IMG/VR virus record: IMGVR_UViG_3300026484_000002
Span: 1-64,000 of that record
Reading direction: 5' to 3' (one strand)
DNA: 64,000 bases
From: a virus
Shown here: positions 116-64,000 of the stretch, one piece after another
Numbering within the stretch: position 1 is the first letter of the stretch
Layout: each line of letters begins with the position of its first letter
Program-made: the position numbers and the translations under genes
The notes under the pieces: generated by a model
Seen by the model: only the letters and a program-made list of their open reading frames with translations
The model's database searches: none
Told to the model about the DNA's origin: nothing

Positions 116-325
116 TTACATAATCCTCTCTATGATTTTTTTAGGTGTTACTTCCCAACCATATAAAGATAATTTATTACTGAGTTTCTCTAAATACTCT
201 ATGCATTCTCCAAGATTTTCTTTTTGATCTAAATATTCAATTGCATAATCTAAATCTTTTCGTAATTCTTGTTCAATAATCATATCTCTAATCATGTCTT
301 CTTTTTTTTCATTATATGGATCCAT
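116..325 (-). CDS. hypothetical early protein
   Basis: 69-aa ORF with AAGGA SD, co-oriented in a tightly packed early cluster. Confidence 0.7.
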   Translation of the reverse strand: MDPYNEKKEDMIRDMIIEQELRKDLDYAIEYLDQKENLGECIEYLEKLSNKLSLYGWEVTPKKIIERIM

Positions 326-343
326 ATTTATTCCTTTATAATT

Positions 344-565
344 TTATTTTATATCTTCTTTTTTTAGTATATAAATTATAAATATAAATATTAATGATAT
401 TGGAAATATTAAAGATATCATAGACCATTCAAGTAGCCACATTACATAATCATCTTCATCAAATTCAGTAAAACCATATACTTTAGTTTCATACTCTTTT
501 CTATAGTTTATAAAAGGTCTTATACCTATAAGGAATACAAGTATAGTTAAAATAAAGTACCACAT
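344..565 (-). CDS. small membrane protein (2 hydrophobic segments)
   Basis: Hydrophobic N- and C-terminal stretches; abuts upstream gene. Confidence 0.65.
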   Translation of the reverse strand: MWYFILTILVFLIGIRPFINYRKEYETKVYGFTEFDEDDYVMWLLEWSMISLIFPISLIFIFIIYILKKEDIK

Positions 566-567
566 AA

Positions 568-1164
568 CTATTCACTTCTAATGAGCAATAGCTCATTATA
601 CATTTCATCAATAAGTTGCTGTACTAATTCTTCTGTTTTAAGGTATTGCCAATTAGGATAACGCTTACATTTAGACCAAGCAATACTTTTTAATTCTTTG
701 ATTAAAAAGTCGAAAGACCAATTTTTTTCATTATCTTTAAACTTGATAAATCTACCTTTATTTAATTCCCATATACGCTTTTTAACTTTATATTTAGCAG
801 TACGAAGCATTGACTCTTTTTCTGCTTCTTCTCTTGTCTTAAATACATTTCCTTGTTCGATGATAGCTTTATCATTTTCACAATTCAATATTTCACTAGT
901 TAATGTATTTCCATCAATATCAATATAATAAGCTTTTTCTCCATTTTTTGGTTCCCAGAAAATTGGTATTTCCTTATATATTTTCCATTCTGTTTCATTC
1001 CATGATTCGTTCATTGGAGTATTTTCTGAAAAAATATTCATATAACGAAATGGGTTAGTATGTGTTTCATCATAATAACAATAAATTATATTCTCATAAT
1101 TTTTAGGTGTTAATTTTTTACCATTTAGTAGTCTTTCTATTAGTTCTTTTTTAGTTAATATCAT
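568..1164 (-). CDS. hypothetical phage protein
   Basis: 198 aa, AAGGAG SD; WEPKNGEKAYYI...GNVFKTREEAE segment of a kind common in phage early proteins. Confidence 0.75.
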   Translation of the reverse strand: MILTKKELIERLLNGKKLTPKNYENIIYCYYDETHTNPFRYMNIFSENTPMNESWNETEWKIYKEIPIFWEPKNGEKAYYIDIDGNTLTSEILNCENDKAIIEQGNVFKTREEAEKESMLRTAKYKVKKRIWELNKGRFIKFKDNEKNWSFDFLIKELKSIAWSKCKRYPNWQYLKTEELVQQLIDEMYNELLLIRSE

Positions 1165-1198
1165 TTTATTCTCCTTTAATTACATAATATAAATTTAA

Positions 1199-1513
1199 TT
1201 ACATAATATAAAAATGTAAAAGTTTGTATAATTGAAGTTCATGAATATGGTCATCAATTTCTCTTTTCATATCTTCATATTCTTCATTACTATCCCAAAC
1301 ACCTTGCAAATGACTTTTTACCCATTCAGTATATATAAATAAAGTATCCTTCCACTCTCTTTGCTTGTTGTCATGTGTGTTAAAACACAAATAAGTAATC
1401 CAAGTAGGGGTTTGCCACAGTTCTACTTTTTTACCTTTCTTATCCTCTGCATATAGATTCATACTCATTTTATTCTCCTTGATATAAATCTTCAGGTTTA
1501 ACTGGTTTTGCAT
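1199..1513 (-). CDS. hypothetical protein (true start probably MSMNL near 1468)
   Basis: AAGGAG precedes the internal Met; the longer start overlaps the upstream gene. Confidence 0.7.
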   Translation of the reverse strand: MQNQLNLKIYIKENKMSMNLYAEDKKGKKVELWQTPTWITYLCFNTHDNKQREWKDTLFIYTEWVKSHLQGVWDSNEEYEDMKREIDDHIHELQLYKLLHFYIM

Positions 1514-1982: not shown

Positions 1983-2042
1983 TTTATTTCTCTTTTAGTA
2001 TTTTTATAATTTCTGTTATTTTTTTTGTTGTTATCATTTGTT

Positions 2043-2420: not shown

Positions 2421-2423
2421 TTT

Positions 2424-13172: not shown

Positions 13173-13418
13173 ATGGGTAAAAGTGTAGCTCCATTAATGA
13201 CAAAGTTAGTGCAAGAGATGGAAGACTTTAGGATAATAACAAGTAGATTTCCATCAACTATAGTTACCAATACAATGACAGCAAAGCAACTTATGAGAGA
13301 AGCAGAATCAGTAGGAAAACTTACAATTCCAGATACTAATACAATATTATTAGATGGCTTGTTTTTAGCTGTTGGGATCCAAGATAAAAGTCAAGAAATA
13401 AAAATGAGGGTATTATAA
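13173..13418 (+). CDS. hypothetical protein
   Basis: 81 aa, AAGGA SD, stop overlaps the next start. Confidence 0.7.
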   Translation: MGKSVAPLMTKLVQEMEDFRIITSRFPSTIVTNTMTAKQLMREAESVGKLTIPDTNTILLDGLFLAVGIQDKSQEIKMRVL

Positions 13419-14928: not shown

Positions 14929-15498
14929 ATGACTTTTGAAATACCAGTAGATAATAATGAATATAGAAGTGTATGGGATAAGCCATTACCAATTGTAACT
15001 GTAAATAATAAATATTATAGAGTATATATTCTTGATGAGATAGGACATATGGCAGATTATGGAGAGTTATTAGATCTTCTTGCAGATTTAGATGAAGATA
15101 GTATAGTTGAGTTTCATTTAAATACTCCTGGTGGAGTATTAGATACAGCCAGTATGATTATGGATGCAATTAAGAATTGCAGAGCTAAAACAATTGGTAA
15201 ACTGAGCGGAACTGTAGCTAGTGCAGGAACAATGCTAGCTTTAGTTATGGACGAAATATATATTGCACCATTTGCTGCATTTATGATTCACGCATGGAGC
15301 GGTGGATCTTCAGGAAAAGCAAATGAGATTAAAGCTCAGCAATCATATATGGAAAAAGAAACAAAAAAATTATTTCAAGTTGTATATGATGGATTTTTAA
15401 CTTCAAGAGAAATCAATAAGATTTTAGCTGGAACAGATATGTGGATGAATAAAGAAGAAGTAGAAAAAAGATTAAGCAATCGTAAAAAAATAGCATAG
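14929..15498 (+). CDS. clpP: ClpP-like serine protease
   Basis: LNTPGG, VASAGT (catalytic Ser), FMIH, DMWM motifs. Confidence 0.85.
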   Translation: MTFEIPVDNNEYRSVWDKPLPIVTVNNKYYRVYILDEIGHMADYGELLDLLADLDEDSIVEFHLNTPGGVLDTASMIMDAIKNCRAKTIGKLSGTVASAGTMLALVMDEIYIAPFAAFMIHAWSGGSSGKANEIKAQQSYMEKETKKLFQVVYDGFLTSREINKILAGTDMWMNKEEVEKRLSNRKKIA

Positions 15499-17016: not shown

Positions 17017-18867
17017 ATGTCAAAAATAACAAAAGAAGAATTTGAAGAATTAAAAGTTCTCTATGGTGAAGATGAAGCAAAAAACTTAACAAGTGGCAAT
17101 GTGGATGAAGATACAAAAGAAGATTTTGTAAAGCTTATTGCAGATAGCAATGATGACACTTTCGATATAGATCTTGCTTTAGATTCATATGATGCTAGTT
17201 TCCCTGGATATACTCCAAGTGATAATGCTTTAGAGTTTTTCAATCTAATGAGATTAGTGCAAGGTGGAGATTTTGAATTTAAAACACCATTAGCACATTA
17301 TTTTATGGTGGATCTATTATTGAATGAAATTCATGATGTTCATCTATTCCCCTTTAGCGATGAAGTTTGTGAACAAATAGAGATAAATCATTTAAGAATA
17401 TCTTTTTGTTGTTCAAGGGGTGTTGCAAAGAGTACAGTTGTTATATCATTTTTTGGAGTATATAGTGCTATTAAAGGAAAACTTCCTAATGGTATAGGTA
17501 AAGTATATTTCTACCTTATATTAGCTGCATCAACAAGAGGTGGAGCTAGAACCAATGCTTTAGCTGTTCGAGCAATGTGTGAGGATAGTGTATTTATTAA
17601 TAACTATTTTGAGAGTGTTAGATATACTGAAACGGAAACTGAATTTGTTAGAAAAGGAACAGGACCAAAAAAAGATAGATCGTTTATGATTAGATATGCT
17701 GGTATTGGTACAGGGGTTCGTGGTATTAGATATGGTGAAAGAAGACCTGATTTAATTGAGATGGACGATATAATCCTTAATGAATCAGCTGCATATTCTA
17801 AAACAATTAGTGATAATATAGATAGTATAATTTATTCTGATTCAGAAGCTGCCCTTAAGGGTGGAGGAAACGGTAGAATTATTATGACATTTACACCATT
17901 TCATTATAAAGATAATAATGTTAGAACCATCACTTCTAAGACTTATACTCCATGTTTAATTCCTATTGCAAATACTTTTGATACAGAGAATGTAAAACTT
18001 AAAGATATTGTCAGCTCATGGGAAGCTATGCACCCAGCTAAAACAATATTGTCAATGGTTATAAATTCTAAAAGATCCAATAAAATGAAATCATTTATGC
18101 AGGAAAGAATGCTTAGACTAACAAGTAATACTAACAGATTGGTTCCAGACAGTTGTTTCAAATATTATGATGCAAAAAATGTAATAAACAATTTATGGGC
18201 ATACAATATATATATTACAACTGACTATACTACAACAAGTGGAGAAAATTCAGATTACAGTGGAATAGCTGCATGGGCTATTAGCAATAATGGAGATTAT
18301 TTTTTATTGGATCTGTATTTACGCAAAATGGGAATGAAAGAACAATATGCTAAGACATTGGATCTAGCTGCTAAATATAAAAGAATGGGTAGATATGTTG
18401 AAATCGGTGTAGAAATAGATGGAAATCAAGGAGCTCATGTTTATTCATTAGAGCAAGAGATGATGAAAAGAGCAGATTATTATACATTTGCTAGAGATAG
18501 AAATAATAAGAGTAATGAAAGAAAAGGTATTTTGAGTAGAAGTAGTGGAGTTAAAAAACATGAAAGATTTAGAATAGCGGTAACTGATTCTTTGCTAGTT
18601 GGTAAAATGTATTTTCCAGAACACTTAAAAGATACTGATGATTTTAAAGAATTTCTGCAACAAATAAAAGGTGCTACTCATGAAGGATTTACTAGATCTG
18701 ATGATGGTCCAGATTTAATAACTCAGTTAGTAACATTGATTGACATTATTATTCCTGCAGTAGAACCAATGATGAATCCAGAAAATAACCTAGATAGAAT
18801 AGATGCGTCTATATGGGGACATATTGATGATGATGAAAGTAATTCTGGTAGTAGTGAAATATTTTAA
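17017..18867 (+). CDS. terL: terminase large subunit (N4 gp68-like)
   Basis: CSRGVAKST P-loop, GVRG..RPDLIEMDD, nuclease motifs TTDY, DYSG and DDGPD. Confidence 0.9.
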   Translation: MSKITKEEFEELKVLYGEDEAKNLTSGNVDEDTKEDFVKLIADSNDDTFDIDLALDSYDASFPGYTPSDNALEFFNLMRLVQGGDFEFKTPLAHYFMVDLLLNEIHDVHLFPFSDEVCEQIEINHLRISFCCSRGVAKSTVVISFFGVYSAIKGKLPNGIGKVYFYLILAASTRGGARTNALAVRAMCEDSVFINNYFESVRYTETETEFVRKGTGPKKDRSFMIRYAGIGTGVRGIRYGERRPDLIEMDDIILNESAAYSKTISDNIDSIIYSDSEAALKGGGNGRIIMTFTPFHYKDNNVRTITSKTYTPCLIPIANTFDTENVKLKDIVSSWEAMHPAKTILSMVINSKRSNKMKSFMQERMLRLTSNTNRLVPDSCFKYYDAKNVINNLWAYNIYITTDYTTTSGENSDYSGIAAWAISNNGDYFLLDLYLRKMGMKEQYAKTLDLAAKYKRMGRYVEIGVEIDGNQGAHVYSLEQEMMKRADYYTFARDRNNKSNERKGILSRSSGVKKHERFRIAVTDSLLVGKMYFPEHLKDTDDFKEFLQQIKGATHEGFTRSDDGPDLITQLVTLIDIIIPAVEPMMNPENNLDRIDASIWGHIDDDESNSGSSEIF

Positions 18868-45156: not shown

Positions 45157-48100
45157 ATGGCTAACTATCCTGATGACTTCACTAAAAATACCAATAATGT
45201 ACTGGATCAATTTTCCCAATTAACAGACACCTACAATACTGCTGTTGACGTTATTGGTTCTGTGCCTACTTCTACAAATAAAATCAATCATCTCCAACAA
45301 AAGAAACAACAAAAAATAGATAGACTTAATCCAGATGCTACATTGGATCTATATAATAATATGGATATATATACAAATGAATATGGAATAACTAAAGATT
45401 CATTAAATAGCTATACTCCAGAACAGTTACAAGAAATGCTTGGTTCTAGTGTAAATGATAAAGTATATTATGACGATAAAGAAATAGGTCCATATCAAAT
45501 GAAACAAGATGCTGAAGGAGAATGGAATAAAACCCCTTTTAGTGGCACTACTCAACATGTGTATGTTGCTCCTAGCAAAGATGGTAATATGAAGTTAGGT
45601 TTAGCAGGTGTAGGCTTTAGAGAAAGATATACACCTGGTCTTGCTGCAAAAGAAGGATTGACTACAAATAAAAACTATGGTTGGGCTCCAGGGGAAAAAG
45701 GAGTAGATCCAACAAAAGAACCTTATTTAGATATAGCTCTTCCATATGACGAAGCTTCAAGATTAGAATTCCTAACACACTCAAATAAAGGACAAATTGC
45801 AAATAGAGCAGGTGGTGCTAGTGTTGCTGACTATATAAAAAATGTGAAACCAAATGTTTATGGCAAAGGAGCGAGTGAATATACAACACAAAATGCCCCT
45901 ATGTGGAATATAAATTCCAGCAATACAGATTTACCAGAGCAAGTAGTTACTCCACATATTCCTAAGTTTTTAGGTGATACTAGTACGCCTAGATCAAAAG
46001 CAATAGGTGTAATCCATGATAATGCAGAATACGAAGGTGAGCCTCTGCTAGGACAATTTGCAGATGGAGTTGCTAGAAATGCTAGAGGATTTGCTGGTGG
46101 AGTAGCGAGAGTCATTGGTGATACTGCAAAACTAGCTAATGATTTAGAAACTAGAGCCATTTATGAATCAGCAAAAAGACTTTATGATTTCAATGAGAAA
46201 GATGCAAATGAATTAGCAGATAGATTTCAATTTTTAACAAAAGAAAAACTAGATACCATGGAAAATGCTATAGCTGGTGAAGATTTTGTTACTGCTACAG
46301 CTGATGATACTAAGAAAATGGAAGAGCATCAAAAGAAAGCTTTTAAGGATGTTACTTGGTCAGATCCAAGTTCATATGGTAAAGTCAATTTACCTGAAGC
46401 ATACAATATGTTTAAGACAGGTTTATCTAGCCCAGAAATGACTTTTAAATCACTAGGCTATATGCTCGGAAACCTAATAGGTCTTCCTGAAAAAGCAGCA
46501 ATCAAAATGGCAGGCAAAGGAACTTTAAAAGCACTTGAGTACAATGCAAAAAAAGATGTTGCAAAAGAGATGTTAAGCAAAGCTGCCAAGACTGATAAGC
46601 TAATTGCTGCTGGAAAAATAACAACTGAAGATGCTGTAAAAAAAGGCATGACTTTATTGGATCCAGCCAAGAAAGCCATGTATGAAAAAACTATTCAACT
46701 TAGTGACAGAGCATTAAGTAAAATTCCAATTAAAAATAAATTCAATGCATTCGTTGCAAAAAATGCAAACATACTACATCTTGGAGCTGTAACTAATGAA
46801 CAGGATATGGATGATTACTACGAAAAACACGGTGAAAGAGCATCTCTACAACATGCATTATTAGGTTTTGCTGCAAATGCTGTAGGAGCAAAAATAGACT
46901 TATGGGCTGATAAAACTGCATTAATGGGAACAAAAGAAGGCTTTTCTGCATTAATTAAAAAAGCAGGTAAAACAAGAGCACAAAAGATGCTTACAGGAGT
47001 AATTTCTGGTGCAGCAAAAATGGCAGAAGGTGGTATTGCTGAGCTTCCTGCAGAATATATTCAGAGTGGGATCCAAGCTTTCAATAATACATATAAAGAT
47101 GATAATGCAGCAGAAGCTTTAACCAAAGCATTTCATGATGCAACACAAGGTGCAGCTTTCGGAGCAGCAAGTGGTATTCATATGGCAGGTCCTAGTGCTG
47201 GATCTAACATTATTACAAATACATTTACTGAAACTGATAGTGATAAAAGCTATGAAAATAAAATTACATCTGACACAGAACCAACAAATGCAACTTCTGA
47301 TGAACAGGCACAAGATTTAGCACTTGATAAGCTCTATACACACTTGCATGAAAAAGGAGAACCATTATCTGAAGAAGATAAACCTTTGGCTCATGCATCA
47401 GTTGAGCGTCATTTAAACAATACTTTACAAAGTCTTGCATTAGCTGAAGAAAATATAAATGCTGAAATTGCTAAAGAAAATCCTGATACTGAATTTATAG
47501 GTTCTCTCGAAAAAGAAAAAGAAAACCTTGAAGATAAGATTTCTATTTTACTTGATATGCGTAATCATACTGCAGAAGATGGAGTTATTTATAATAATAG
47601 ACCAATAAAAGAAATAGACAATGATTTGACACAAACAATAGAACAACTCAACAATGAGCCTAAAGATCCAAAACTGATTAAGAAAAAACGACAGTTATTG
47701 TTAGAAAAATATATAGCCAGTCATCCTTTAGCAAAAAAAGCCAATGAAAATGGTGAAGATACTGAAGATTCTGAAGCAACTTTCGATACAGTATTGTCAC
47801 AAAAATTATATGGAGGAGTGACCAAGGATGGATATAGAACTGGTATTGTTAATATGGTCACTCCATTGTTTGATGACAGTATAAGTGAACATGGAAAGCG
47901 AGCTGTTAAAAATAATATAGAAAGATTTCTTGAATCTCAATCAGCCAAAGAAAAGGCAATCGAAGCAGCTAAGACTAAATTTGAAGAACAAGGAAAAGAT
48001 GCAGAAGAGAATCCAACACCTGTTATAGCTAGATATTTTACTCCTACAGGTACTGAAGCTACTTTTGAATATAGAGGTATTGCTTCAGAAAAAACATTAG

Positions 48101-49782
48101 AAAAAATAAAAAAAGAAAACGAGTTCTTGCATAGTATTCTTCATTATGCAACCAATCCTGTAGAATTGGAATCTATAGTATCTGACATTGGTTCTAATCA
48201 ATCTGATAAAAATGCTCCTGATGATTTTTTTGATGCTTCAAAAGGAGAACCTAGAAGCAACCATGCTTTAGAATCTGAAGAAGGAATAAATACTAATTTT
48301 GAAAATAAAAAAACACATATACTAAATAATACTGAAGATACTTCTGAAACACAAAACACTATAGAGAATAAAATCACAGAACTAAATGACTTATTAGGCA
48401 ATAAACAACACGAGAACTTCAGTAAACAGCTAGAAGAAACCATTGAATCAATTCCTTCTTTTTCAACTGATATACTAAACCAACTAAAAGATACAAGAGG
48501 ACTTAAAAGTTATGTTACAAATGTAAAAAATGGTATAAACCTTATGCCAAAGCTTTTAACACGACTCACAAAAGAACCAAATGAGCAAGGTACTCCTACT
48601 TGGAACGCCAGAGCTTATAGAGCAGTTACTGCATTAGAAAAGTATGCCAAGGCTGCTAATAAAATAATAGAAAGTGAAGCATATCAAAAAATACAACAAA
48701 ATGCTTTTCAGGAAAAGTTGCCCAATATAGAACAGACAGCATCTAATACTAACACTAGTATGAATGAAGTTTCTTTTGACGCAGATGAAGCTCCTTTTGA
48801 TATTTCTAATATTGATATAAACACAGAACCAAAAGAAAACAATAATATTAGTACGCAAAACAACACAGTTGAGATTGGATCCAATGAAACAAAAAAAGAA
48901 ATTGGATCAAACGAGACAACAGATAGTAAACTTAACGAAACAAGCAATAACAAAGATTCCAAAGAAGAAGTAGAAACAACTCCTAAAATGGATAGTACTG
49001 GATCCAATGACTATAAAATTCCAGATATGGAAACAAAACAATCAAGTGAGGCATCATTAAGTAATGAAGCACCATCAAATGTTGTCAGTAAAGTAAAAGA
49101 ACAACAGCAACCCAATAAACAAACCAAACAAGCTGAGCAGCCAAGTAAAGAAAAGGTTGAATCAAATAACAAATCTAATAAAGAAGCAAATAATAAAGAA
49201 GTAAAAGAAGTAAATGATAAAGAAGAATCAAAGAACGTCAAAACAGTAGATAACCATGGTCCGATTGAAAGAAAAAACAAATCTGATACTTTTTACAAAA
49301 ATGATACAACATATAAAGATCCTATAAAACAGAAGGAAAAACAATTAGTAAATAGTGTTGTCGGTAAATTGCAGACAATATTGAATAACTACGAAAAGAA
49401 ATACAAAGAAGTAGAAACTACTTTAGGCACCGACATTAAAACAATAAAAGCAGAAAGAGCTAAGCGTACTAAATCACTAAAAGAATTTACTGGAATTAAA
49501 GATATTGCATCTAGAGGAAAAGTTAAAAAGAAATATTTTTACGAAGACTTAAGTATAACTATTGAAGACTTATTAGAAGATATAGATGAGAATAGTTATC
49601 TTGGAAAAAATATAATAGAAGAAGTAAATAAAATTCGACCTAATAGTAAAATAGGTATTGAAATACTTGAAAATAATAGTATCTCTAAAACAATAGAAGA
49701 ATCACTAACTAATATGCTTGATAAAGAGATCATAAGTGAAGATGTGATAAACTCTCTAGAAGAAATAACAGGATGTAACTAA
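45157..49782 (+). CDS. virion RNAP locus part 1 (N-terminal ejection/membrane region)
   Basis: 1541 aa; Ala/Gly-rich amphipathic region with ELPAEYIQSG; long disordered linker; precedes the polymerase domain. Confidence 0.7.
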   Translation: MANYPDDFTKNTNNVLDQFSQLTDTYNTAVDVIGSVPTSTNKINHLQQKKQQKIDRLNPDATLDLYNNMDIYTNEYGITKDSLNSYTPEQLQEMLGSSVNDKVYYDDKEIGPYQMKQDAEGEWNKTPFSGTTQHVYVAPSKDGNMKLGLAGVGFRERYTPGLAAKEGLTTNKNYGWAPGEKGVDPTKEPYLDIALPYDEASRLEFLTHSNKGQIANRAGGASVADYIKNVKPNVYGKGASEYTTQNAPMWNINSSNTDLPEQVVTPHIPKFLGDTSTPRSKAIGVIHDNAEYEGEPLLGQFADGVARNARGFAGGVARVIGDTAKLANDLETRAIYESAKRLYDFNEKDANELADRFQFLTKEKLDTMENAIAGEDFVTATADDTKKMEEHQKKAFKDVTWSDPSSYGKVNLPEAYNMFKTGLSSPEMTFKSLGYMLGNLIGLPEKAAIKMAGKGTLKALEYNAKKDVAKEMLSKAAKTDKLIAAGKITTEDAVKKGMTLLDPAKKAMYEKTIQLSDRALSKIPIKNKFNAFVAKNANILHLGAVTNEQDMDDYYEKHGERASLQHALLGFAANAVGAKIDLWADKTALMGTKEGFSALIKKAGKTRAQKMLTGVISGAAKMAEGGIAELPAEYIQSGIQAFNNTYKDDNAAEALTKAFHDATQGAAFGAASGIHMAGPSAGSNIITNTFTETDSDKSYENKITSDTEPTNATSDEQAQDLALDKLYTHLHEKGEPLSEEDKPLAHASVERHLNNTLQSLALAEENINAEIAKENPDTEFIGSLEKEKENLEDKISILLDMRNHTAEDGVIYNNRPIKEIDNDLTQTIEQLNNEPKDPKLIKKKRQLLLEKYIASHPLAKKANENGEDTEDSEATFDTVLSQKLYGGVTKDGYRTGIVNMVTPLFDDSISEHGKRAVKNNIERFLESQSAKEKAIEAAKTKFEEQGKDAEENPTPVIARYFTPTGTEATFEYRGIASEKTLEKIKKENEFLHSILHYATNPVELESIVSDIGSNQSDKNAPDDFFDASKGEPRSNHALESEEGINTNFENKKTHILNNTEDTSETQNTIENKITELNDLLGNKQHENFSKQLEETIESIPSFSTDILNQLKDTRGLKSYVTNVKNGINLMPKLLTRLTKEPNEQGTPTWNARAYRAVTALEKYAKAANKIIESEAYQKIQQNAFQEKLPNIEQTASNTNTSMNEVSFDADEAPFDISNIDINTEPKENNNISTQNNTVEIGSNETKKEIGSNETTDSKLNETSNNKDSKEEVETTPKMDSTGSNDYKIPDMETKQSSEASLSNEAPSNVVSKVKEQQQPNKQTKQAEQPSKEKVESNNKSNKEANNKEVKEVNDKEESKNVKTVDNHGPIERKNKSDTFYKNDTTYKDPIKQKEKQLVNSVVGKLQTILNNYEKKYKEVETTLGTDIKTIKAERAKRTKSLKEFTGIKDIASRGKVKKKYFYEDLSITIEDLLEDIDENSYLGKNIIEEVNKIRPNSKIGIEILENNSISKTIEESLTNMLDKEIISEDVINSLEEITGCN

Positions 49783-52700
49783 TGAGTTGTAATATAAAAG
49801 CAGGACATATAATAGAAGGTATAGGAAAATATTTAAAAGATGGTGATAATGCTACAGCAAATAAGTTGCAAAATGCATTAAGAGATACTACAAATTTATC
49901 TACTCACTTTACTATCGACTTTAAAAGTAAAAGTAAGTTAGATGATTATTCTAAAGAATATGACAGTAATAGCAACAACCTTACTACTACAGAACTTCAC
50001 ATAAACAATTCAATAAGTAATTTCATTGAAAAAGCTGTGGATCTAATTCCTAGTGTGGATAAAACGCTTCCATCTATTGAAGGTGAAATTTCACAAGGAT
50101 GGCAAAGTGTTATCTCTTATTTTATTCGACCTGAAACAATAAAATCAACAGATAAATATGGAACTACAAAAGAAAAAATTATTACTAGACTTGATCCTGA
50201 TGTTCAAAGAGCAGTATCTTTAGTTACTTCTGAATGGTTAAACAATGATGCATTAACAGGCATTTCTGAACTAAGAGGTGATGATGGAGTTAGAGCTCTG
50301 CTTGGTATGGGGACAAAAGATATCGTTACTAAAACTGAAAGAGATGCTGTAAGAGATATTGACGGTTATGTTGGTGAAGCTGCTAGGCAAATGGGTAATA
50401 AAATCTACAGCATGTTAGGCATAAGAGCAAAAGCAAATTCTCCACAAATAAATAATAAACTGATTGAAAATACATTAAAAGTAGAATTAGGTTTGTTGGC
50501 TCTAAAAACATTGGAATACAATGGAGATATATCATTGAGCAAAAAAGACATTATACTGAACGAAGAAGTTATTAGATCCCAAGTGTCAGTATATCAATTC
50601 AACAATAAACATAATAACAACATTAATCTAAATACTCCTAATGGGGTTCTTCCTTTGTCAATAAATGACAAATATAATGATATCAAATTTAGTAAAATAT
50701 TTACTGATAAGGTAAATGAAGTAATCAACAATAAAAGAATTGCAGGGATTTATACTGATCCAAAAGAAGCAATACCATCTTATGATGAAATAAAAAATAA
50801 TGGTGTAACTGGAATACTAGGTAATATAGTCAGTGAGGCACATAAGAATGCTGTACAAAATTCTAGTAGTACCGCCTATGAATTTAAACATGGGTTTATT
50901 AAAGGTGTAGAGTATGTAGAAAAAGCCCTTAAAAAAGCTATGGGGTATAAAGATGAAGCTAAAACTACCAAAGGACTAAGAGAAGCCACTAGAGGTAAAA
51001 ATTTAGCCATAGATATGCAGTATGATAATTTAATGAATGCATATAATACTGTAGGTTTGAGCAAAAAAATGTATGCTAAATGGGAAGTTATTACTAATAA
51101 TAGATTTATGATTGATAGCAACCAACTTAATTGGCAAGATAAAAAAATGCATAGACAAAGTGTATTTTTTGAACCTGTTGTGGTTACTGAAGAAAATAAA
51201 AATGATTTCTATATGATGTTAGGTCAATCTTTTGATTTAGATATAGATAAACATTCTCCTGATGTGGTCAATAAAGCTGTTGAAGATTTGTTTAAGGATA
51301 TTGAAAAAAATACAAAATTATCAGTTACTAAAAGAACTAAAAAAAGTTTAGACTCTTATTATAATAGTAAAGATTACAAAAAAGATATTGAAACATTATT
51401 TAAATACATAGTTGATAATTACAACAGTAGTGAGCCTGAACATGCATTAAGTGGTGCAGTTGAGCTTCTGGGTTGGATGCACGAAACTAAAGCAAGTAGA
51501 CCATATACTACTCAATCTATGATAGAGACTGATGCTATTACTTCTGGATATGCAATCAAAGGCTTGATGTTTCCATTTCATGATAATAAAGAAGAAATTA
51601 ACTGGAGTGAATTTGAACGCACAGGAATATTTACTGCTGATGCAGAAATTACTGATTATGGAGAATGGAAAGATAATGAAGACAATAAAGATTCTTATGA
51701 AGTTCCAGCAGAAATGCTTACTGAAAAATTACAAGCATTATACACAGAAGATAATACAAAAGAAATTTCAGACATTATAAAATTAATTGACAAGAAAGCT
51801 AAATTTGATAAAGATGGAGAACTAGTCTCTATATCTCGTAACTTTATGAAGAATCCTTTTATGGTTCTAAACTATGGTAGTGCTATTAAATCTATCATTA
51901 GAGCTGTTAGTAAACATGCTGAAGATGAGTTCTATCAAACTTTAGATGCACTTTTCAACAGTAAAGAAAATAGCAATAGAAAAGAACTACAAACTAGTGT
52001 TTTAAATGCAATAGCAACTATAGCTAAAAGAATGAATCCTATCTTTGATGTAGATGGTGAAATTATAGGATTTGATAGAACCAAAGCTAATTCTACATAT
52101 AAATCTATTATCAATAGATTTAAACACGAAGGCTTAGAATTTGAACTTACTTCACAAGAAGCTACAGCTCTAAGAGAAAGCATATCAGATTTTATAGGAG
52201 AACCACTAACAAAAACATTTAAAGAAAAATATGGTAGATTTATAGAATTAACTACAACAATTAATGAATCTATGGTTGCTCAATTTAGAATAGCAAATGA
52301 AGTAATTGAAAAAGAAATAGAAAAACTTCACCAAGAAAAATTAAAAGATGCTAGTGGTAATGAAAAACTTGTAACTCCTATGACTGATAAAGAGTATCAA
52401 GAAATAGTACAAAGTGTAGCCAATATTCTGCCTGTTGTAAATACAGCATTGGATCTGGTTGAAGGTGGTAAAGCTCCATTATTGATAGCAGAATTAAAAG
52501 CTATAGATAATAGAGAAGTATGGGGAAATACTAGTACTAGTGGTTATGTCCGCAGCAAGTTCACTAAAAACACAAAAGAGTCAGATGTTTATATTAATAG
52601 TGCTCCTGCACAAGTTAAGAGATTATTAGAAGCATATTCTTCTGGTTCTGTAATACCTATTCATTTCTTTGATGGTAGTATTCAAGCCAAATTATTAGCT

Positions 52701-53279
52701 AAGCTAAAAGCTCTTGGAGTACATGATGCCAACTTCTCTCCTATAAATATGACTATAGAAGTAACTAAAGCGTATAATGAAATATTTTGGGAATTAGCTA
52801 GAGAATATAGTTTAGCAAAAGAAATTAGAGAAAGTTATTTAAATAGCTTAACCGCATTAGATGATGATATTGTTACAGCATTAAACAGTAAATACTCAGA
52901 AACATTGAAGGATAGTTCTAAGATCCCATATACAAAGACTTTAAGTAAATTAAACAAGCAATTAGAAAATGTACATATAGAAGCTGAAAATAAAAGAGAG
53001 AAGATATTTACTACTCCTGTAGTAGTTAATCAAGCTTATTATAACAATGGCACTGAAAGTGCAGCATATATACCTAATAAAAATGAATACACTAAACAAA
53101 CTATAGATGAAGATCTTGTAAACAATGCTGCTGACAAATTAAAACGATATAATAATATATCACTTGAAAATAATGCTGATATACCAACTGATATGACGCA
53201 AACGCAAGCTTTGATTAGTGATAAAGATGCTAAAATAGCTATAAATAATGTTATAGAAAATAATAATAAGGAATGTTAA
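49782..53279 (+). CDS. virion RNAP locus part 2: catalytic polymerase (mini-vRNAP equivalent)
   Basis: NWQDKKMHR, motif A IETDAITSG, motif B RNFMKNPFMVLNYGS, IHFFDG, motif C VHDA. Confidence 0.88.
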   Translation: MSCNIKAGHIIEGIGKYLKDGDNATANKLQNALRDTTNLSTHFTIDFKSKSKLDDYSKEYDSNSNNLTTTELHINNSISNFIEKAVDLIPSVDKTLPSIEGEISQGWQSVISYFIRPETIKSTDKYGTTKEKIITRLDPDVQRAVSLVTSEWLNNDALTGISELRGDDGVRALLGMGTKDIVTKTERDAVRDIDGYVGEAARQMGNKIYSMLGIRAKANSPQINNKLIENTLKVELGLLALKTLEYNGDISLSKKDIILNEEVIRSQVSVYQFNNKHNNNINLNTPNGVLPLSINDKYNDIKFSKIFTDKVNEVINNKRIAGIYTDPKEAIPSYDEIKNNGVTGILGNIVSEAHKNAVQNSSSTAYEFKHGFIKGVEYVEKALKKAMGYKDEAKTTKGLREATRGKNLAIDMQYDNLMNAYNTVGLSKKMYAKWEVITNNRFMIDSNQLNWQDKKMHRQSVFFEPVVVTEENKNDFYMMLGQSFDLDIDKHSPDVVNKAVEDLFKDIEKNTKLSVTKRTKKSLDSYYNSKDYKKDIETLFKYIVDNYNSSEPEHALSGAVELLGWMHETKASRPYTTQSMIETDAITSGYAIKGLMFPFHDNKEEINWSEFERTGIFTADAEITDYGEWKDNEDNKDSYEVPAEMLTEKLQALYTEDNTKEISDIIKLIDKKAKFDKDGELVSISRNFMKNPFMVLNYGSAIKSIIRAVSKHAEDEFYQTLDALFNSKENSNRKELQTSVLNAIATIAKRMNPIFDVDGEIIGFDRTKANSTYKSIINRFKHEGLEFELTSQEATALRESISDFIGEPLTKTFKEKYGRFIELTTTINESMVAQFRIANEVIEKEIEKLHQEKLKDASGNEKLVTPMTDKEYQEIVQSVANILPVVNTALDLVEGGKAPLLIAELKAIDNREVWGNTSTSGYVRSKFTKNTKESDVYINSAPAQVKRLLEAYSSGSVIPIHFFDGSIQAKLLAKLKALGVHDANFSPINMTIEVTKAYNEIFWELAREYSLAKEIRESYLNSLTALDDDIVTALNSKYSETLKDSSKIPYTKTLSKLNKQLENVHIEAENKREKIFTTPVVVNQAYYNNGTESAAYIPNKNEYTKQTIDEDLVNNAADKLKRYNNISLENNADIPTDMTQTQALISDKDAKIAINNVIENNNKEC

Positions 53280-56200
53280 ATGAAATGTACTATATACGCT
53301 TTAGGTGAATACCTTGATGAGAAAGAAGATCTGCCAAAAGTCATAAAAGAATTAAGAAAATTAGATAAGTCAGATAAGTATTTTCCTGACAGTGAATACA
53401 AAAATTTAGCAAAACAAGCAATATTGGATCACAACCAAGCTTATCAGCTTATGGAAGATCTTGATGGTAGATTTAGATATGAATACGAGAACCAATACCA
53501 TGTTGTAGATATTAAAAATATAGATATAAATAACAATAAAAATGAATTAAATATAGTTCTAGCAGATAATACTACTATCAAATATAAGATAGATAATAAA
53601 AACCTAAAAGCTATTAATCATCCTTTTTATTCAAGAGATCTTGAGTTGCAATGGAATGATGTTGTTAGCTCACCTATTGAGCTTTTATTTAATGGGGTTG
53701 ATGCAAAAAGTAAAAATCTAGATAATATTATAGAAGGAAAAGAACTCCTTGATGGTAATATTGAGGCAATTCAAACAGAGTTAAGTAAGTTAGATAGAAT
53801 AGCTCCTAACAGTTCATGGGATCAAGCTCATAGCAATCATTTAAAAGAAGTAATAAGTCGCATAAGTAGATCTGCTGACGAATTAAAAACAGTACAGATA
53901 AAAGTAACTAAAAATTTAGTTGAAAATCTAAAAGAACCATTGGGTAGCTATAATACAAAAAGTAGAACTATCCAAGTTGCTACAGCAGAAGCAATGACTA
54001 AATTTGGAATGAGCAATGAAGAAACATTGGCTCATGAATATCTTCATGCAGTATTAGATATTTTATTCAATAAGCAATTAGGTGTTATGGGTGAAGATAT
54101 AAAAAATGATTTACGAAAATTATATGTACAAGCTAAAAAGAATATAACCTGGAAAGATTTAATGCCTGCTAATGAACTACACAGTAAAGCAGCAGAAAAT
54201 AAAGCTAAAGAAATATACGATTATATTTTTATTGGTAAAATTGGAGATAATAGTGTTGAAGATGCAGAAGTAAGATTAATGGAATTTCTAGTTTATGGTA
54301 TGACCAATAAAGAGTTAAAATCAGCCATAGATAAAATATCATTAAAAGTCAAACCTGTGAAAGCTAAGTCTTCTGGTTTATCTGGCATCTTTGAATATTT
54401 AATGGAAAAATTACAAGATTTAGTTTTTAAAATTAAAACCAAAACAAATAGAAGTGATAATGTAGGGTCAGAACTTACAAGATTGGTTTATAAGCTTGGA
54501 ACAATAAATAAAATGTATGCTAAAACTATTGAGAACAATAAAAACTTACCATTAGATGAAAAAATATTCTCATCTGTAGATAAGGTTTTTAGTAAAATGG
54601 ATAAAGAATTAGGCAAAAAAGTTGAGTCTATAACTAATGATTTTCTAAATGAAAAAGATGGTGATAAAATCTACACCAACGATTTAATAACTCAAGTTAA
54701 AATGCTCAGTAAAGAACTCACAGAAGCTTATAACAAAGGCAAAATTATAAAAACTGCATGGTTATCCATTAAAGGTATATTTGTCATTATGAAAGCTTAT
54801 AGATTATCTAAACAAAGTAAAAATGAAAATATTCAACGATTGTATAAAGAGTTGGATCGTTTACTTCGTAGGATGGATGAATTTGCTGGTAAGTTTATAT
54901 CTGATCTTCTCAGGGATTTCAAAGAGGGAAGAAAGACATTGGTTCAATTAGGTGACATAACTATGCAATTTAAAACCCAATTAGATCGTGTTAAAGACAT
55001 GTATTATAAAGGAACACTTAATGATATTTTTTCTGGTTTTACTAAAGTGGATCTCACTCACGAAAGACATAAAAAACTTAACCAATCTTTAACAAATGTT
55101 ATATTACGTACAGATGTACAAAGTTTCACTACCGATGTTAATGAACTTAAAAAATACATAACAGATGATAAAAAATTATCTAACACTATAAAAGAATTAG
55201 AAGATGAATTAAGTCAAGCTATGTTTAATAGCAAAACATCTACATTAAATGTAGGTCCATGGGTTGTTAATGAATGTAAAGAATTAGCTTCTTATATGAT
55301 ATCTAGAAAAGGAAAAAGAAATAATGCAACTAATATATCACATTTATTTGGAACCACAGAAAGTGTACCTTTAGATGAAAGCTTAAATGGACTATGGAAT
55401 ATTCAAAATATAGAAGAAAAAATAGATAAACTTACTAGCCTTTATGCTCTAAAAAACACAAGTATAGAAAGTAAAAAAGCATTAATTGAATTAATTGATT
55501 TAGATAAAAATGGAGTTCAGAATTATTTAGAAATAACTAGAGGAATGGTTGCTTCAACAAAAGAAGATTGGTTCGTAACTGGATCTTTATCTGAAATGGT
55601 AAAAGGACAAATACATGAAACTCACAATAAAGATAAAGAATTAGTTTTCGCTCCTTTAAATGAAACAAATGCAATGTTAGAAGCTGGTTATTCTTTGGTT
55701 AGGAAATTAGACAAAGATGCTGGAGATATTGATATTAAAAATTATGGTTTATTTGTAACTAACACAAAAGGAGTTACAAAAAGAGTTGATGGAGCACTGG
55801 GTCTTCAAAGAATAAAAATTCCAGGACTATTGCTAAGTCAAAAAATTATGATGTCAAATAAACATTTAACTGGAAAATCTTTAGGAAGAAAAATTAGAAA
55901 TGCTATAAACAATGCTAGAGTAAATGGAACAGATGGAAAAATGTATCCAGTTTATAATGATTTAGGAAATATAATTGATTACAGATATGAATTTACATTA
56001 GATGAGGCAGAGCAATATATGGATTTGGAAACTAGAGGTTCTGAAAATTTAGCTAGAAGTTTTGGTCAAAAAAGTTCACAAATTATTACTGATGAACACA
56101 ATAAAGAATTAATAGATTTAATTATGGAAGATTCTAAAAAAATAACTAATGAAAACAAAGATCAATTCTTGCGTGTTCATGCAGTTGAAAATACTGATGT

Positions 56201-57371
56201 AAACAGTGGATCCAAGATTGATACTTTAAATGCTATGACTGAAGGTGAAGAACTATGGGGATTGCTACCAGCAGATGCTAGAAAATATATTATTGAAAAA
56301 AATATTGAAAATCTTAATGATCCAGATAACATTCCTAAAAAAGAAATTTATATCAGTAAAGATTTATTAAAACAGTTGTTTGGTTATGATGAATTAAGTA
56401 TTGCAGATAGTAAATTGTTTAAAAAAATGGATGTTAAAAATAAAAATAGAATTAGAATGATAGAAGCTTGGTGGATGGATTTAATGCAAATTGCAAAAAG
56501 TATGGTAGTTGTTAAAATGCCTAGTACTATTATAGGAAATATTTTAAGTAATGCTAAATTCTTTATGTTCTCAGGAGTATCTCCTAGAAAGGCTATACAA
56601 TACTTATTGTTAAGTAAAAAAAGTTTGGATAAATGGAAAAAGAATGAAAAAGCTAGACGTGATTTAGAAAGAAAAATTGATATAGCTACCGGATCTAAAA
56701 AAGAACAATTATTGAAACAATTAGCAGATTTAGCTTTAGAATTAAAAGATAATCCTATTATGCCATTAATTGAAGCTGGGTTATATCAAACTATTGCAGA
56801 AGATATTGACACAGAAGATTCAACTAATAGAGTTGTTCAATTATTAGATAAAACATTAGATCCAATTTATAGTAGCAATAAAACTATTGAAGATATTATT
56901 AATACAGTATTTCTTACTAAGAAAAGTACATTAGGTCAAGGATTATTACATATAATGCAAGAAAGTGACTTTCATTTTAGATCAGCTATATATTGGGATG
57001 GTATTGAAAAAGGAATAAGTAAAGATAAGATGTTGAGAGATGTTACAGATAAATTTATTAACTATAGTCGTGTAACTAATAGTCGTTTAATTCATTGGTT
57101 GGATAGAATGGGACCAGAAGCTTTTTGGAAATATTTTGCAAATATACAAAGAGTAAATTGGAGTTTAATGAAGAAAAATAGTACTAAAGTAATTTTAGAT
57201 ACTACAATAAAAGAAACTGGAGTTCCTTTGTGGTCAAATGATGTATTAGATAGTTCTATTATTTATCAATTTGGTAGAAGATTTAACCCATTAAATTGGA
57301 TCAATAATACAGAAGGATTGTTAAATGCAACAGTTGATGTGCCTATTACACATTTGATTGATGGATATTAA
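53280..57371 (+). CDS. virion RNAP locus part 3 (C-terminal region, zincin-like motif)
   Basis: 1363 aa; LAHEYLHA plus downstream EFLVYGMTN; C-terminal FINY...LDRMG...FWKY. Confidence 0.75.
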   Translation: MKCTIYALGEYLDEKEDLPKVIKELRKLDKSDKYFPDSEYKNLAKQAILDHNQAYQLMEDLDGRFRYEYENQYHVVDIKNIDINNNKNELNIVLADNTTIKYKIDNKNLKAINHPFYSRDLELQWNDVVSSPIELLFNGVDAKSKNLDNIIEGKELLDGNIEAIQTELSKLDRIAPNSSWDQAHSNHLKEVISRISRSADELKTVQIKVTKNLVENLKEPLGSYNTKSRTIQVATAEAMTKFGMSNEETLAHEYLHAVLDILFNKQLGVMGEDIKNDLRKLYVQAKKNITWKDLMPANELHSKAAENKAKEIYDYIFIGKIGDNSVEDAEVRLMEFLVYGMTNKELKSAIDKISLKVKPVKAKSSGLSGIFEYLMEKLQDLVFKIKTKTNRSDNVGSELTRLVYKLGTINKMYAKTIENNKNLPLDEKIFSSVDKVFSKMDKELGKKVESITNDFLNEKDGDKIYTNDLITQVKMLSKELTEAYNKGKIIKTAWLSIKGIFVIMKAYRLSKQSKNENIQRLYKELDRLLRRMDEFAGKFISDLLRDFKEGRKTLVQLGDITMQFKTQLDRVKDMYYKGTLNDIFSGFTKVDLTHERHKKLNQSLTNVILRTDVQSFTTDVNELKKYITDDKKLSNTIKELEDELSQAMFNSKTSTLNVGPWVVNECKELASYMISRKGKRNNATNISHLFGTTESVPLDESLNGLWNIQNIEEKIDKLTSLYALKNTSIESKKALIELIDLDKNGVQNYLEITRGMVASTKEDWFVTGSLSEMVKGQIHETHNKDKELVFAPLNETNAMLEAGYSLVRKLDKDAGDIDIKNYGLFVTNTKGVTKRVDGALGLQRIKIPGLLLSQKIMMSNKHLTGKSLGRKIRNAINNARVNGTDGKMYPVYNDLGNIIDYRYEFTLDEAEQYMDLETRGSENLARSFGQKSSQIITDEHNKELIDLIMEDSKKITNENKDQFLRVHAVENTDVNSGSKIDTLNAMTEGEELWGLLPADARKYIIEKNIENLNDPDNIPKKEIYISKDLLKQLFGYDELSIADSKLFKKMDVKNKNRIRMIEAWWMDLMQIAKSMVVVKMPSTIIGNILSNAKFFMFSGVSPRKAIQYLLLSKKSLDKWKKNEKARRDLERKIDIATGSKKEQLLKQLADLALELKDNPIMPLIEAGLYQTIAEDIDTEDSTNRVVQLLDKTLDPIYSSNKTIEDIINTVFLTKKSTLGQGLLHIMQESDFHFRSAIYWDGIEKGISKDKMLRDVTDKFINYSRVTNSRLIHWLDRMGPEAFWKYFANIQRVNWSLMKKNSTKVILDTTIKETGVPLWSNDVLDSSIIYQFGRRFNPLNWINNTEGLLNATVDVPITHLIDGY

Positions 57372-62346: not shown

Positions 62347-62522
62347 TAATTAGCCTTATCTGCAGCTACTAATGCAGCTCTTAGTTGCACTCCATCTTTA
62401 CCAATTTGGTTACTTAATTTACGAATACGCAAACTACATGCTTTTGTAGGTTTATTTTCATATGCTTCAATTTCTTTAATTAAATTATCAACTAATTCTT
62501 TATAATCTCTTAATTCATTCAT
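62346..62522 (-). CDS. small basic protein, Hc1/histone H1-like
   Basis: Start MNELR with AAGGA SD; TKACSLRIRK resembles the NKAA..R.R pattern of the Hc1 family. Confidence 0.55.
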   Translation of the reverse strand: MNELRDYKELVDNLIKEIEAYENKPTKACSLRIRKLSNQIGKDGVQLRAALVAADKAN

Positions 62523-62733
62523 TTTATTTTCCTTTGATTTATTTAAAATTAGAGCGTATCTAAGAATTGCTATAACTCTTAGTAGAGGCTTATTGTTTAA
62601 CAACATCTAAGGCTATTAACCATACTGAATGTTGAGCTTTAGGCTGCAGCCTTATATATATTTCGAGGGTTAAAAGTATAACTACAAAGTACTTAAAATA
62701 CTCTTTTTTGTATTTTTAGCAATTATGAAACTT

Positions 62734-62885
62734 TCATAAGGCATAGGTCGCTGCACCAGAAAAGGATATAAACGATATGAAAAAAAAATGTTTATTTGTT
62801 ATCTTGTGAATAAATAGTTTTAAATATTAATAGGAGGTTAATATGTATGGATAAGTATTCTGATGCAGCTAAATATGCCTTATGA
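62734..62885. ncRNA. long-range inverted repeat / candidate sRNA
   Basis: TCATAAGGCATA..GCTGCACCAGAA pairs with TTCTGATGCAGC..TATGCCTTATGA. Confidence 0.5.
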
Positions 62886-62899
62886 GAACCAACATCTAA

Positions 62900-62929
62900 A
62901 ATTAAGACATTAGTAATTAAGACATTAGT
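62900..62929. repeat. 15-bp tandem duplication at the helicase stop codon
   Basis: AATTAAGACATTAGT x2. Confidence 0.8.
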
Positions 62930-64000
62930 TCAGTTTCTTGTAGTGTTTGTAGAAATTTATTTTCAATATATGTAGCATTAATTACATTGTGCCTTGCACG
63001 AGTAACTGCAACATAATATAAGTATAATTCAGCCATTTCTTCTTCATCTGGCTCATAATTCTTGAATTTTTGTAATTTAAAAATTGTATCTTCTATAGCT
63101 TCATTCATTGAGTCTGATAGCTCAACTTCATCTACTGTTGTACCTTTGCTTGTGTGAGCAGTATAGAGTGTATAACTAGCGTTATTGTGACGCTCATGAG
63201 TTATTTCATTATACACAGAAAGTATTGTTTCTGGTCCATAATTCATTATGAGTCGTATTGCAGATATAATTTCAATATCATCATCAATTTCATTTAATAA
63301 ATATTTTAACCTAGATCCACCAAACTCATTTTGTAAATCTTTAGAATTATAAAATACATCTACTTTTTCTTGTAAATCTTTAAATCTATTTGATGTTTCT
63401 TTATTAAATCTTTTACATCTTAATACTGCTAATGGAACTTCAAACATTTGTTTTACTTTTTGTTTTGTTGCTAATTTAAAAGGAACTTTTTGTTTTTTTA
63501 ATTGAATTATTTTATCAATTAAATCTGCATTGGTTCTAGATAAAAAAGCTCTAGTTTTAATTTCTGATTTTTCATATTCAAATCCTTCAAATACAAAATT
63601 GTCATCAAGTGTAAATCTTCCAAATTGTTGAACTCTTTTTGCAATATTTATATTACATCTAAAAGATTGAGATAATGTTAATTGTTTAGCTTTTGGATAA
63701 TAATCAAATGCATTTACACATCCCATAAAACTCATAATTCTTTGTTTTGGATCACCAATCAATATCTTTAATTTTGCTGGATAATGTTTGAATAGATCCA
63801 ACATTATTTTATTTAAATCATTTGCTTCATCAATTACTAATACATCTACTGGATCCAATTTAATCAATCCATTAACTATTTTTGAATGAAATAATTTTAG
63901 ATAAGCATCATGAGTACAACCCATAGATCCATCAAACATAGCTGCTATAATTTTCTTTGCTAGTGCAATAATACTTTCTTTTGAATTGTAATGAAGTTCT
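62917..64000 (-). CDS. UvrD/Rep-like SF1 helicase (5' end outside the window)
   Basis: VIDEAND, GDPKQRI, LSQSFRC, TAHTSKG, LYYVAVTRAR; frame open to the window edge. Confidence 0.88.
   Translation of the reverse strand, partial: ELHYNSKESIIALAKKIIAAMFDGSMGCTHDAYLKLFHSKIVNGLIKLDPVDVLVIDEANDLNKIMLDLFKHYPAKLKILIGDPKQRIMSFMGCVNAFDYYPKAKQLTLSQSFRCNINIAKRVQQFGRFTLDDNFVFEGFEYEKSEIKTRAFLSRTNADLIDKIIQLKKQKVPFKLATKQKVKQMFEVPLAVLRCKRFNKETSNRFKDLQEKVDVFYNSKDLQNEFGGSRLKYLLNEIDDDIEIISAIRLIMNYGPETILSVYNEITHERHNNASYTLYTAHTSKGTTVDEVELSDSMNEAIEDTIFKLQKFKNYEPDEEEMAELYLYYVAVTRARHNVINATYIENKFLQTLQETELMS

Follow-up and report, generated by a model that had tools for sequence, protein, structure and literature searches.

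An iterated one-sided word, TGGWTC, in an N4-like vent phage and its relatives, and its possible role as initiation site of the gp43-type primase

HIP1, the highly iterated palindrome of cyanobacteria (GCGATCGC), is repeated as a full palindrome and goes together with GATC and CGATCG methyltransferases. Short template words are also read by phage primases. The gp4 primase of T7, an enzyme of the zinc-finger/Toprim type, initiates at TGGTC, GGGTC and GTGTC, sites that have been proven by biochemistry and share a 5'-GTC-3' core. For the deep-sea vent phage NrS-1, the published account describes a primase-polymerase (prim-pol) that initiates at 5'-TTTGGTTA-3' through its helix-bundle domain and that also uses GTG (PMC8718748, citing Zhu et al. 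2017). Here we analysed the first 64,000 bases (the window) of the virus record IMGVR_UViG_3300026484_000002, a phage from a hydrothermal-vent metagenome that we call G000. An initial annotation of the window had described the palindrome TGGATCCA, dispersed over its whole length, as a HIP1-like phenomenon. We find that the repeated unit is instead the asymmetric hexamer TGGWTC, which recurs in N4-like phages of unrelated hosts and may be the initiation site of their gp43-type primase.

The record of G000 is a complete genome of 91,281 bp with 30% G+C and 49-bp direct terminal repeats. An exact search of the + strand of the window gave 73 TGGATC, 63 GATCCA, 27 GGATCC and 21 TGGATCCA octamers, close to the earlier manual count of about 70 TGGATC, many GATCCA and about 20 octamers; the eleven octamer positions cited as examples were also right, except that 40945 should read 40944 (Table 1). 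TGGWTC reaches a density of one per ∼612 nt per strand in the window, and the whole genome holds 184 TGGATC hexamers (both strands together), 31 octamers and 39 BamHI sites (GGATCC). Chance had been estimated to yield on the order of 10 hexamers per strand and fewer than one octamer, and this was borne out for the window by base composition (∼9 TGGATC per strand) and by dinucleotide-preserving shuffles (0.49 octamers expected and at most 3 obtained).

The excess survives codon-preserving shuffling. With a codon-aware null, in which shuffles keep each protein sequence and the codon usage of each gene, the window is expected to hold 24.1±4.0 TGGATC, 31.3±2.9 GATCCA and 3.0±1.4 octamers. For the genome, shuffles of synonymous codons within genes predict 84.5±5.9 TGGATC hexamers (z ∼17) and 4.4±1.6 octamers, while codon-order shuffles predict 64.6 hexamers; GGATCC is expected 13 times. 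TGGATC is enriched in both sense and antisense, without exception among the frame classes where at least 2 copies are expected, and TGGTTC is clearly enriched in three of the six frame/strand classes and marginally in two others. The sites thus lie in coding and non-coding DNA and in different reading frames, as the initial annotation had stated; the 7.3 kb of non-coding DNA carries 24 whole TGGWTC copies where 3.4±1.8 are expected. Where a coding position could synonymously carry TGGATC, 43% do so, compared with 2-22% for comparison words. The antisense, per-frame and non-coding counts stand in for the dicodon-preserving shuffle suggested initially, which has no power within single genes, where nearly every codon pair is unique and the sequence would hardly alter. 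A codon or dipeptide artefact is ruled out by the synonymous and codon-order shuffles and by the enrichment in separate frames and strands: the excess is genuine and operates on the DNA itself.

What is repeated is a one-sided hexamer, 5'-TGGWTC-3', rather than the palindrome, because the two half-sites behave independently and the non-palindromic TGGTTC is enriched as well. GATC as such is found at its expected frequency in the genome (251 copies versus 247 by composition and 245 by shuffle). TG stands on its left in 94 of the 251 cases, CA on its right in 90 and both in 31, where independence predicts 33.7 (Fisher p = 0.50); the corresponding figures for both flanks in the window are 21 and 24.7. 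TGGTTC/GAACCA, which is unable to form such a palindrome, is the second most enriched non-palindromic hexamer in G000, with 110 copies versus 61 expected (sense 45 versus 19, antisense 59 versus 36) and an enrichment over composition of 4.3-fold, versus 7.2-fold for TGGATC. A T is favoured before the word and a C or T after it, so that it often reads TTGGWTCY. Forward and reverse copies are balanced over the genome (149 versus 145) and in every 10-kb bin, and strand polarity is therefore absent in G000.

The TGGATCCA octamers and the BamHI sites can be explained by the fact that two opposed half-sites share one GATC. The likeness to HIP1 is that both are 8-bp palindromes centred on GATC and greatly over-represented in coding as well as non-coding DNA; the difference is that in HIP1 the palindrome is the unit, whereas in G000 it is the product of independent halves and has a non-palindromic sister word. 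We have therefore abandoned the HIP1-like interpretation, given that the full palindrome is no commoner than its halves predict, that TGGTTC is enriched and that no methyltransferase was found in the genome. If the primase reading set out below holds, a further lesson is that striking palindromes, BamHI sites included, can be by-products of one-sided words.

Judged by its predicted proteins, G000 is a distant N4-like (Schitoviridae-type) phage, with a giant virion RNA polymerase, an N4-type portal, capsid and terminase, and a gp43-type primase beside a Sak4-like gene. In tblastn searches the portal, capsid, terminase, virion RNA polymerase, primase and Sak4-like proteins of N4 were all detectable in G000 (gp50, E = 2e-15; gp59, 4e-122; gp56, 2e-31; gp68, 9e-53; gp43, 2e-21; gp44, 6e-15), and gp39, gp45 and gp15/16 had no match. 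The terminase large subunit (TerL) of G000 is at most 31% identical to those of cultured Schitoviridae, and its alignment revealed no relative among GTDB genomes. G000 belongs to a large, uncultured clade with genomes of 90-110 kb and terminases 55-66% identical, from which we took four vent relatives, G001 to G004, for closer comparison.

We ran the same codon-aware pipeline on all comparison phages, ranking each word among ∼2,000 hexamers and using the first 50 kb only for ZC03 and ort11. The word family is enriched in related phages too, and TGGTTC is the top-ranked hexamer in N4 of Escherichia coli (220 copies versus 87 expected, z = 14; sense 110 versus 45, antisense 97 versus 29), in ZC03 of Pseudomonas (144 versus 58), in ort11 of Sinorhizobium (141 versus 64) and in G001 (134 versus 73). 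In N4, TGGGTC and TGGCTC are also raised and TGGATC is absent, because there is only one GATC in 70 kb. In ort11, which tolerates GATC, TGGATC is raised ∼2-fold (100 copies, rank 9), and in G001 it is not enriched. TGGTTC is not enriched in SBP1 of Vibrio, where TGGCTC ranks eighth, nor in nACB1 of Acinetobacter, where TGGTTT ranks fourth. IMG/VR contains at least 564 gp43 loci. Across 56 gp43-bearing IMG/VR loci, TGGTTC was among the top three words in 14 and among the top ten in 19, with a median observed/expected ratio of 3.0. TGGATC stood at ∼2.5-fold where GATC is tolerated but reached the top ten in only two loci; it outranked TGGTTC in a minority, and the cases inspected were high-GC loci in which GATC itself is 2-3 times over expectation. 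Among the closest relatives of the G000 primase, TGGTTC took first rank in four of the five loci whose length allowed scoring.

The word can therefore be assigned to the N4-like phage lineage itself, in which it is conserved across unrelated hosts; G000 has it in a new, A-rich form in which TGGATC dominates and the palindromes are a side effect. The main word or words of each phage recur on each strand once per 621 nt in G000, 638 nt in N4, 694 nt in ZC03 and 709 nt in ort11, across 30-44% G+C. A literature search found no paper describing a phage TGGATC/TGGTTC word; N4 combined with TGGTTC gave none, and the TGGATC matches were primer listings.

Some further features of word usage were seen in these phages. 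The TGGTTC copies of N4 are more numerous on the bottom strand than on the top (130 versus 90), in all but one of seven 10-kb bins (that one being equal), and their spacing is slightly more even than random, with a coefficient of variation (CV) of 0.82-0.95 (0.82 on the bottom strand) and a largest gap of 1.5 kb versus 2.1 kb expected. Relatives without a close gp43 orthologue have words of their own at ∼2-fold in sense and antisense, namely TTGGTA, ACTTGG and TTGGTG in G003 and G004 and TTGCTA, ACTTGC and TTAGCA in G002. In several other loci, TAGCTA, CTGCAG, CAGCTG or AGTACT stood far above expectation under the composition null, the only one applied to them.

The distribution of the word across genomes points to one gene. 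Among ten large vent relatives, only G001 carries a close orthologue of the G000 primase (E = 2e-83) and only G001 is enriched in TGGTTC, with 134 copies versus 40 of the reversed word; none of the other nine exceeds this control. In the TerL tree G000 groups with the word-less G004, and G001 falls in the other sub-clade among word-less genomes. Since G000 and G001 are not TerL sisters yet share both gene and word, the word appears to follow the replication module and not the structural phylogeny, and TGGWTC runs through the structural genes too. Nine G000 proteins have homologues in G001 but not in G002-G004, and only the primase among them is also found in N4, ZC03 and ort11; by these homology searches no other gene is distributed like the word in vent and cultured phages alike. 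Family A DNA polymerase (N4 gp39) shows the reverse distribution, as G000 and G001 have the word and no detectable homologue whereas G002-G004 have the polymerase and no word.

The initial annotation had also raised the possibility of selected binding sites for a phage or host protein, with a ParB-like protein as its example. The general idea is retained in the reading we favour, with a phage protein, the primase, as the reader, but the example is not: homologues of the ParB-N-like protein occur in the word-less G002 and G003 and are absent from the word-bearing N4, ZC03, ort11 and G001, and we rejected it as the reader of the word. G000 also encodes a paralogous ParB-N-terminal-domain protein of 277 aa (70,838-71,671, - strand) with a helix-turn-helix-like stretch, whose homologues are likewise confined to G002 and G003.

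The primase gene of G000 lies beyond the window (Table 1). It is an orthologue of N4 gp43 and, as in N4, adjoins the Sak4-like gene. It was recognised through PHROGs and N4 gp43, while six-frame Pfam searches of G000 for Prim-Pol and Toprim_2 found nothing. A Hint-type mini-intein occupies approximately residues 61-260 near the N-terminus and was probably inserted at the P-loop. The core of the gp43 family, DxD...TTKxH...RxR, is invariant and constitutes the catalytic signature of archaeo-eukaryotic primases. Pfam places a PriCT-1 domain at the C-terminus of N4 gp43 and of the G001 orthologue and gives no PriCT-1 match in the G000 primase itself. The last 243 residues of the G000 protein were modelled (pLDDT 79) as an alpha/beta domain with a five-helix bundle behind it. 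Among solved structures, this model is most similar to the primase-polymerase domain of cyanophage S-2L (6zp9, E = 4e-4); RepB', pRN1 and African swine fever virus (ASFV) prim-pols come next, and the PDB entries after 6zp9 are 3h20, 9aam and 3m1m. N4 gp43 had no match to solved structures by sequence. On this model, the gp43-type protein of G000 is predicted to combine an archaeo-eukaryotic-primase catalytic domain with a helix bundle. With no gp39 homologue detected, the replicase of G000 is possibly this primase-polymerase-like gp43 orthologue or an unrecognised polymerase.

We give roughly even chances to the reading that TGGWTC is the initiation site of the phage's own gp43-type primase, that is, that the primase reads the word and that priming is its purpose. 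Primers for discontinuous DNA synthesis would then start at TGGWTC on either strand, and a copy would be maintained roughly every 600-700 nt of each strand. N4, from which GATC is almost wholly excluded, uses TGGTTC, whereas in G000, where GATC is tolerated, the A-form TGGATC has become the commoner; opposed half-sites falling on one GATC produce TGGATCCA, leaving the 31 octamers and the BamHI sites as a by-product. In a comparison with a 94%-identical contig from another strain, word sites were conserved in 19 of 21 cases versus 15.2 expected for matched hexamers (p ∼0.04), a weak hint of constraint on the sites.

Such a site would resemble those of T7 in being a short asymmetric template word that begins with TGG or GGG, ends in TC and occurs on both strands (TGGTC compared with TGG-W-TC). 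It would differ in that the T7 enzyme is a zinc-finger/Toprim primase with proven 5-mers, whereas the gp43-type protein is of the archaeo-eukaryotic type and its link to the site is inferred. The likeness to NrS-1 is that of another vent phage with an archaeo-eukaryotic-type primase whose helix bundle reads a template site, and TTGGTT is common to its site and to the TTGGTTC of G000. NrS-1 is, however, an unrelated temperate siphovirus, and the likeness seen here between the two primases is one of fold class.

Several observations weigh against a role in priming. G000 shows no strand switch or polarity of the kind that a fixed lagging-strand template would give, and the spacing of its sites is not more even than random (CV 1.2). 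The proven primase sites of T7 are enriched only ∼1.3-fold by the same test, versus 2.2-2.5-fold here and in N4, meaning that an excess of this size is not automatic for primase sites; under the same null, bacterial genomes show other words at ∼2-fold, so the size of the excess alone is not exceptional either. SBP1 and nACB1 have a gp43 that is 43-49% identical to that of N4 but have the shifted words TGGCTC and TGGTTT; the presence of gp43 does not, therefore, predict the exact word and a change of specificity must be assumed. Within the vent clade, the gene-word comparison is carried by only two word-bearing genomes, G000 and G001, and the label of primase rests on homology and on a fold model with a best match of E = 4e-4. 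In NrS-1, the octamer site is described as rare in the phage's own genome, not iterated, and thought to mark a specific origin (PMC8718748). Finally, a 6.4-kb island of G000 (73,387-79,800) has no TGGATC among 10 GATC (p ∼1e-4) and only 2 TGGTTC.

This island comprises ∼14 genes with a slightly raised G+C of 0.32-0.39, including those for a divergent ThyX-like protein (294 aa), an SLT transglycosylase and an LRAT/NlpC-like protein, and tblastx matched a portion of it to G001 and G002. It has the appearance of a recent acquisition, and the near lack of the word in it is compatible with slow selection as well as with slow mutational conversion of new DNA.

Counts alone cannot separate selection for the sites from mutational pressure exerted by the same replication enzymes. 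We consider it rather less likely, though a live rival, that the word reflects a mutational or repair bias, in which an enzyme of the replication module, through primase-polymerase synthesis or linked repair, creates TGGWTC more often than it destroys it. Such a bias would be in keeping with an excess that is uniform over coding DNA, non-coding DNA and both strands, with the irregular spacing, with the foreign-looking island, whose 10 GATC and lack of TGGATC resemble unconverted DNA, and with the ∼2-fold excess of other words in ordinary bacterial genomes. The one-letter neighbours, however, are mostly at expectation, with AGGATC, TTGATC and TCGATC alone depleted, so that the word is not supplied along any single substitution path; nor does the total of GATC depart from expectation. 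Moreover, the word fails to track the family A DNA polymerase, it keeps a similar density at 30-44% GC, and its sites are slightly over-conserved between strains. Somewhat less probable again is that TGGWTC is recognised by a different phage protein: it might serve the Sak4-like annealase and an exonuclease as a recombination signal, or be bound by a single-strand-binding protein, a compaction protein or a factor involved in packaging. The word is indeed intrinsic to the phage and follows the replication/recombination module, and a Cas4-like exonuclease gene of G000 (83,234-83,977), which has the highest word density in the G000 genome, is likewise present in G001 and absent from G002-G004. 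Of the nine vent-clade genes with the right pattern, however, N4, ZC03 and ort11 share just one, the primase, and the Sak4-like protein and single-strand-binding protein are not detectably common to G000 and G001 by tblastn. A transcription signal is disfavoured by the enrichment of both orientations relative to genes and by the N4-like phage LUZ7, in which ∼28 mapped transcription starts use hairpin or sigma-70 promoters (PMC9163698); a promoter function was rejected on orientation, copy number and these LUZ7 data.

Explanations that place the origin of the word in the host or in methylation fared worse. Phages often reflect the word usage of their hosts, and Chi sites, which are asymmetric, may be over-represented in phage genomes. 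We still think it very improbable that the word is a genome signature taken over from the host or a Chi-like protective site that the phage has copied. That the same word is top-ranked in phages of E. coli, Pseudomonas and Sinorhizobium speaks against a host-wide bias, and relatives with 57-62% identical TerL, some of them from samples with adjacent IMG numbers, lack the word. Campylobacterota was our guess for the host phylum, suggested by the hydrothermal-vent origin, a low G+C and the marked avoidance of CATG, ACGT, TCGA and GGCC, and genomes were picked by 16S signature. The octamer excess, whose presence in the host chromosome would by the initial annotation have refuted a phage system, was absent in 401 of 401 Campylobacterota genomes, with at most ∼33 octamers per Mb versus 340 per Mb in the phage. 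Two apparently TGGATC-rich genomes (G392 and G172) proved to be composition artefacts, one having 57% G+C and the other being GATC-rich, with TGGATC at 1.0-1.2 times the codon-aware expectation and no flank preference; the reversed-word control used in these counts is biased by CTAG avoidance. If the primase reading holds, caution is called for in oligonucleotide-based host prediction for N4-like phages, whose strongest word would be their own. The remaining alternative, a HIP1-like palindrome made or kept by a GATC- or GGATCC-type methyltransferase with linked repair, is largely refuted and has the slightest chance of all. Its appeal lies in the octamer, which has GATC at its centre and exceeds by a factor of 40-60 what composition or dinucleotide shuffles would give, and in the threefold excess of GGATCC (39 versus 13). 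It is contradicted by the independence of the half-sites, by the enrichment of TGGTTC and by N4, where the word family recurs although its 70 kb contain a single GATC. Six-frame searches covering all 91 kb of G000, including the DNA outside the window where a search for a GATC/GGATC enzyme had been advised, found no member of the DNA methyltransferase families PF02086, PF01555 and PF00145 (D12, N6/N4 and C5), and Pfam and PHROG scans of ∼50 G000 open reading frames (ORFs) found no methyltransferase. Deamination of 5-methylcytosine, converting GGWCC to GGWTC, was rejected given that GGWCC is not depleted (28 versus 28.5 expected), and there was thus no sign of the methylation-directed repair suggested as creating the sites.

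If the primase reading is true, the template specificity of the N4 gp43 family is predicted directly from sequence, an oligonucleotide assay in a model phage can test it, and the word would serve as a marker of replication-module swaps between mosaic phages. A phage enzyme would then also be shaping the vocabulary of an entire genome, across all its protein-coding genes, to an extent similar to or greater than restriction avoidance. More tentatively, and with slightly less than even confidence, we propose a general rule: N4-like phages would write the word of their own primase over the whole genome at a fixed density, with a copy roughly every 600 nt of each strand, the letter at position 4 would drift between lineages, and a swap of the replication module would force the rewriting of the entire genome, its structural genes among the rest. 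A genome-wide replication code would then be readable from sequence and could explain lineage-specific iterated words in other phages.

Table 1. Positions of the word and of the genes discussed in G000
Feature	Position	Strand	Remarks
TGGATCCA octamers (21 in window)	317 (..324), 6632, 10803, 12759, 25528, 26737, 27064, 28034, 30579, 34408, 35184, 35374, 40944, 43307, 46658, 48876, 48999, 56207, 58307, 60774, 63850 (..63857, last)		Exact search
Dispersed asymmetric word TGGWTC, both orientations	317..63857		209 copies: 73 TGGATC, 63 GATCCA, 36 TGGTTC, 37 GAACCA
ParB-N-like protein, 284 aa	12124..12978	+	PHROG ParB-like matches; candidate binder of the initial annotation, rejected
Terminase large subunit gene	17017..18867	+	8 TGGWTC copies; basis for placing G000 among related phages
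Three abutting virion RNA polymerase genes	45157..57371	+	N4-like hallmark; 42 TGGWTC copies together; N4 gp50 tblastn E = 2e-15
gp43-type primase, 873-aa ORF	67,448-70,069 (outside window)	-	phrog_2135 'DNA primase', E = 2e-51, residues 262-867

Other genes of G000 were noted in passing. A PIN-PhoH fusion protein of 464 aa (13418-14812, + strand), with a ClpP-like protease gene downstream (14929-15498, + strand), is encoded by a conserved core gene of the uncultured 90-110 kb clade and was for that reason rejected as a host-derived gene that could give a clue to the host. The PIN-PhoH gene is unusually word-poor, with 1 TGGWTC copy in 1.4 kb, though G001 has no detectable homologue. Three adjacent genes for proteins of 437, 350 and 381 aa (84,995-88,484) have no Pfam or PHROG match; like the primase they are found in G001 and not in G002-G004, but they are absent from N4, ZC03 and ort11. 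There are two ThyX (PF02511) genes, a canonical one at 90,556-91,146 (196 aa, E = 4e-46) and a longer, divergent one at 74,365-75,249 (294 aa, E = 2e-25), the latter inside the word-free island. Several relatives have LAGLIDADG inteins in their terminase genes (PF14528 in P0018, P0024, P0029 and others).

G000 also strongly avoids several four-base palindromes. By the codon-aware null, ACGT occurs 43 times versus 104 expected, TCGA 59 versus 116 and GGCC once versus 17, and CATG is found 376 times versus 652 by a Markov estimate. CpG is generally depleted, and GATC and GGATCC are not avoided. This pattern suggests a host with many 4-cutter restriction systems, none of them directed against GATC.

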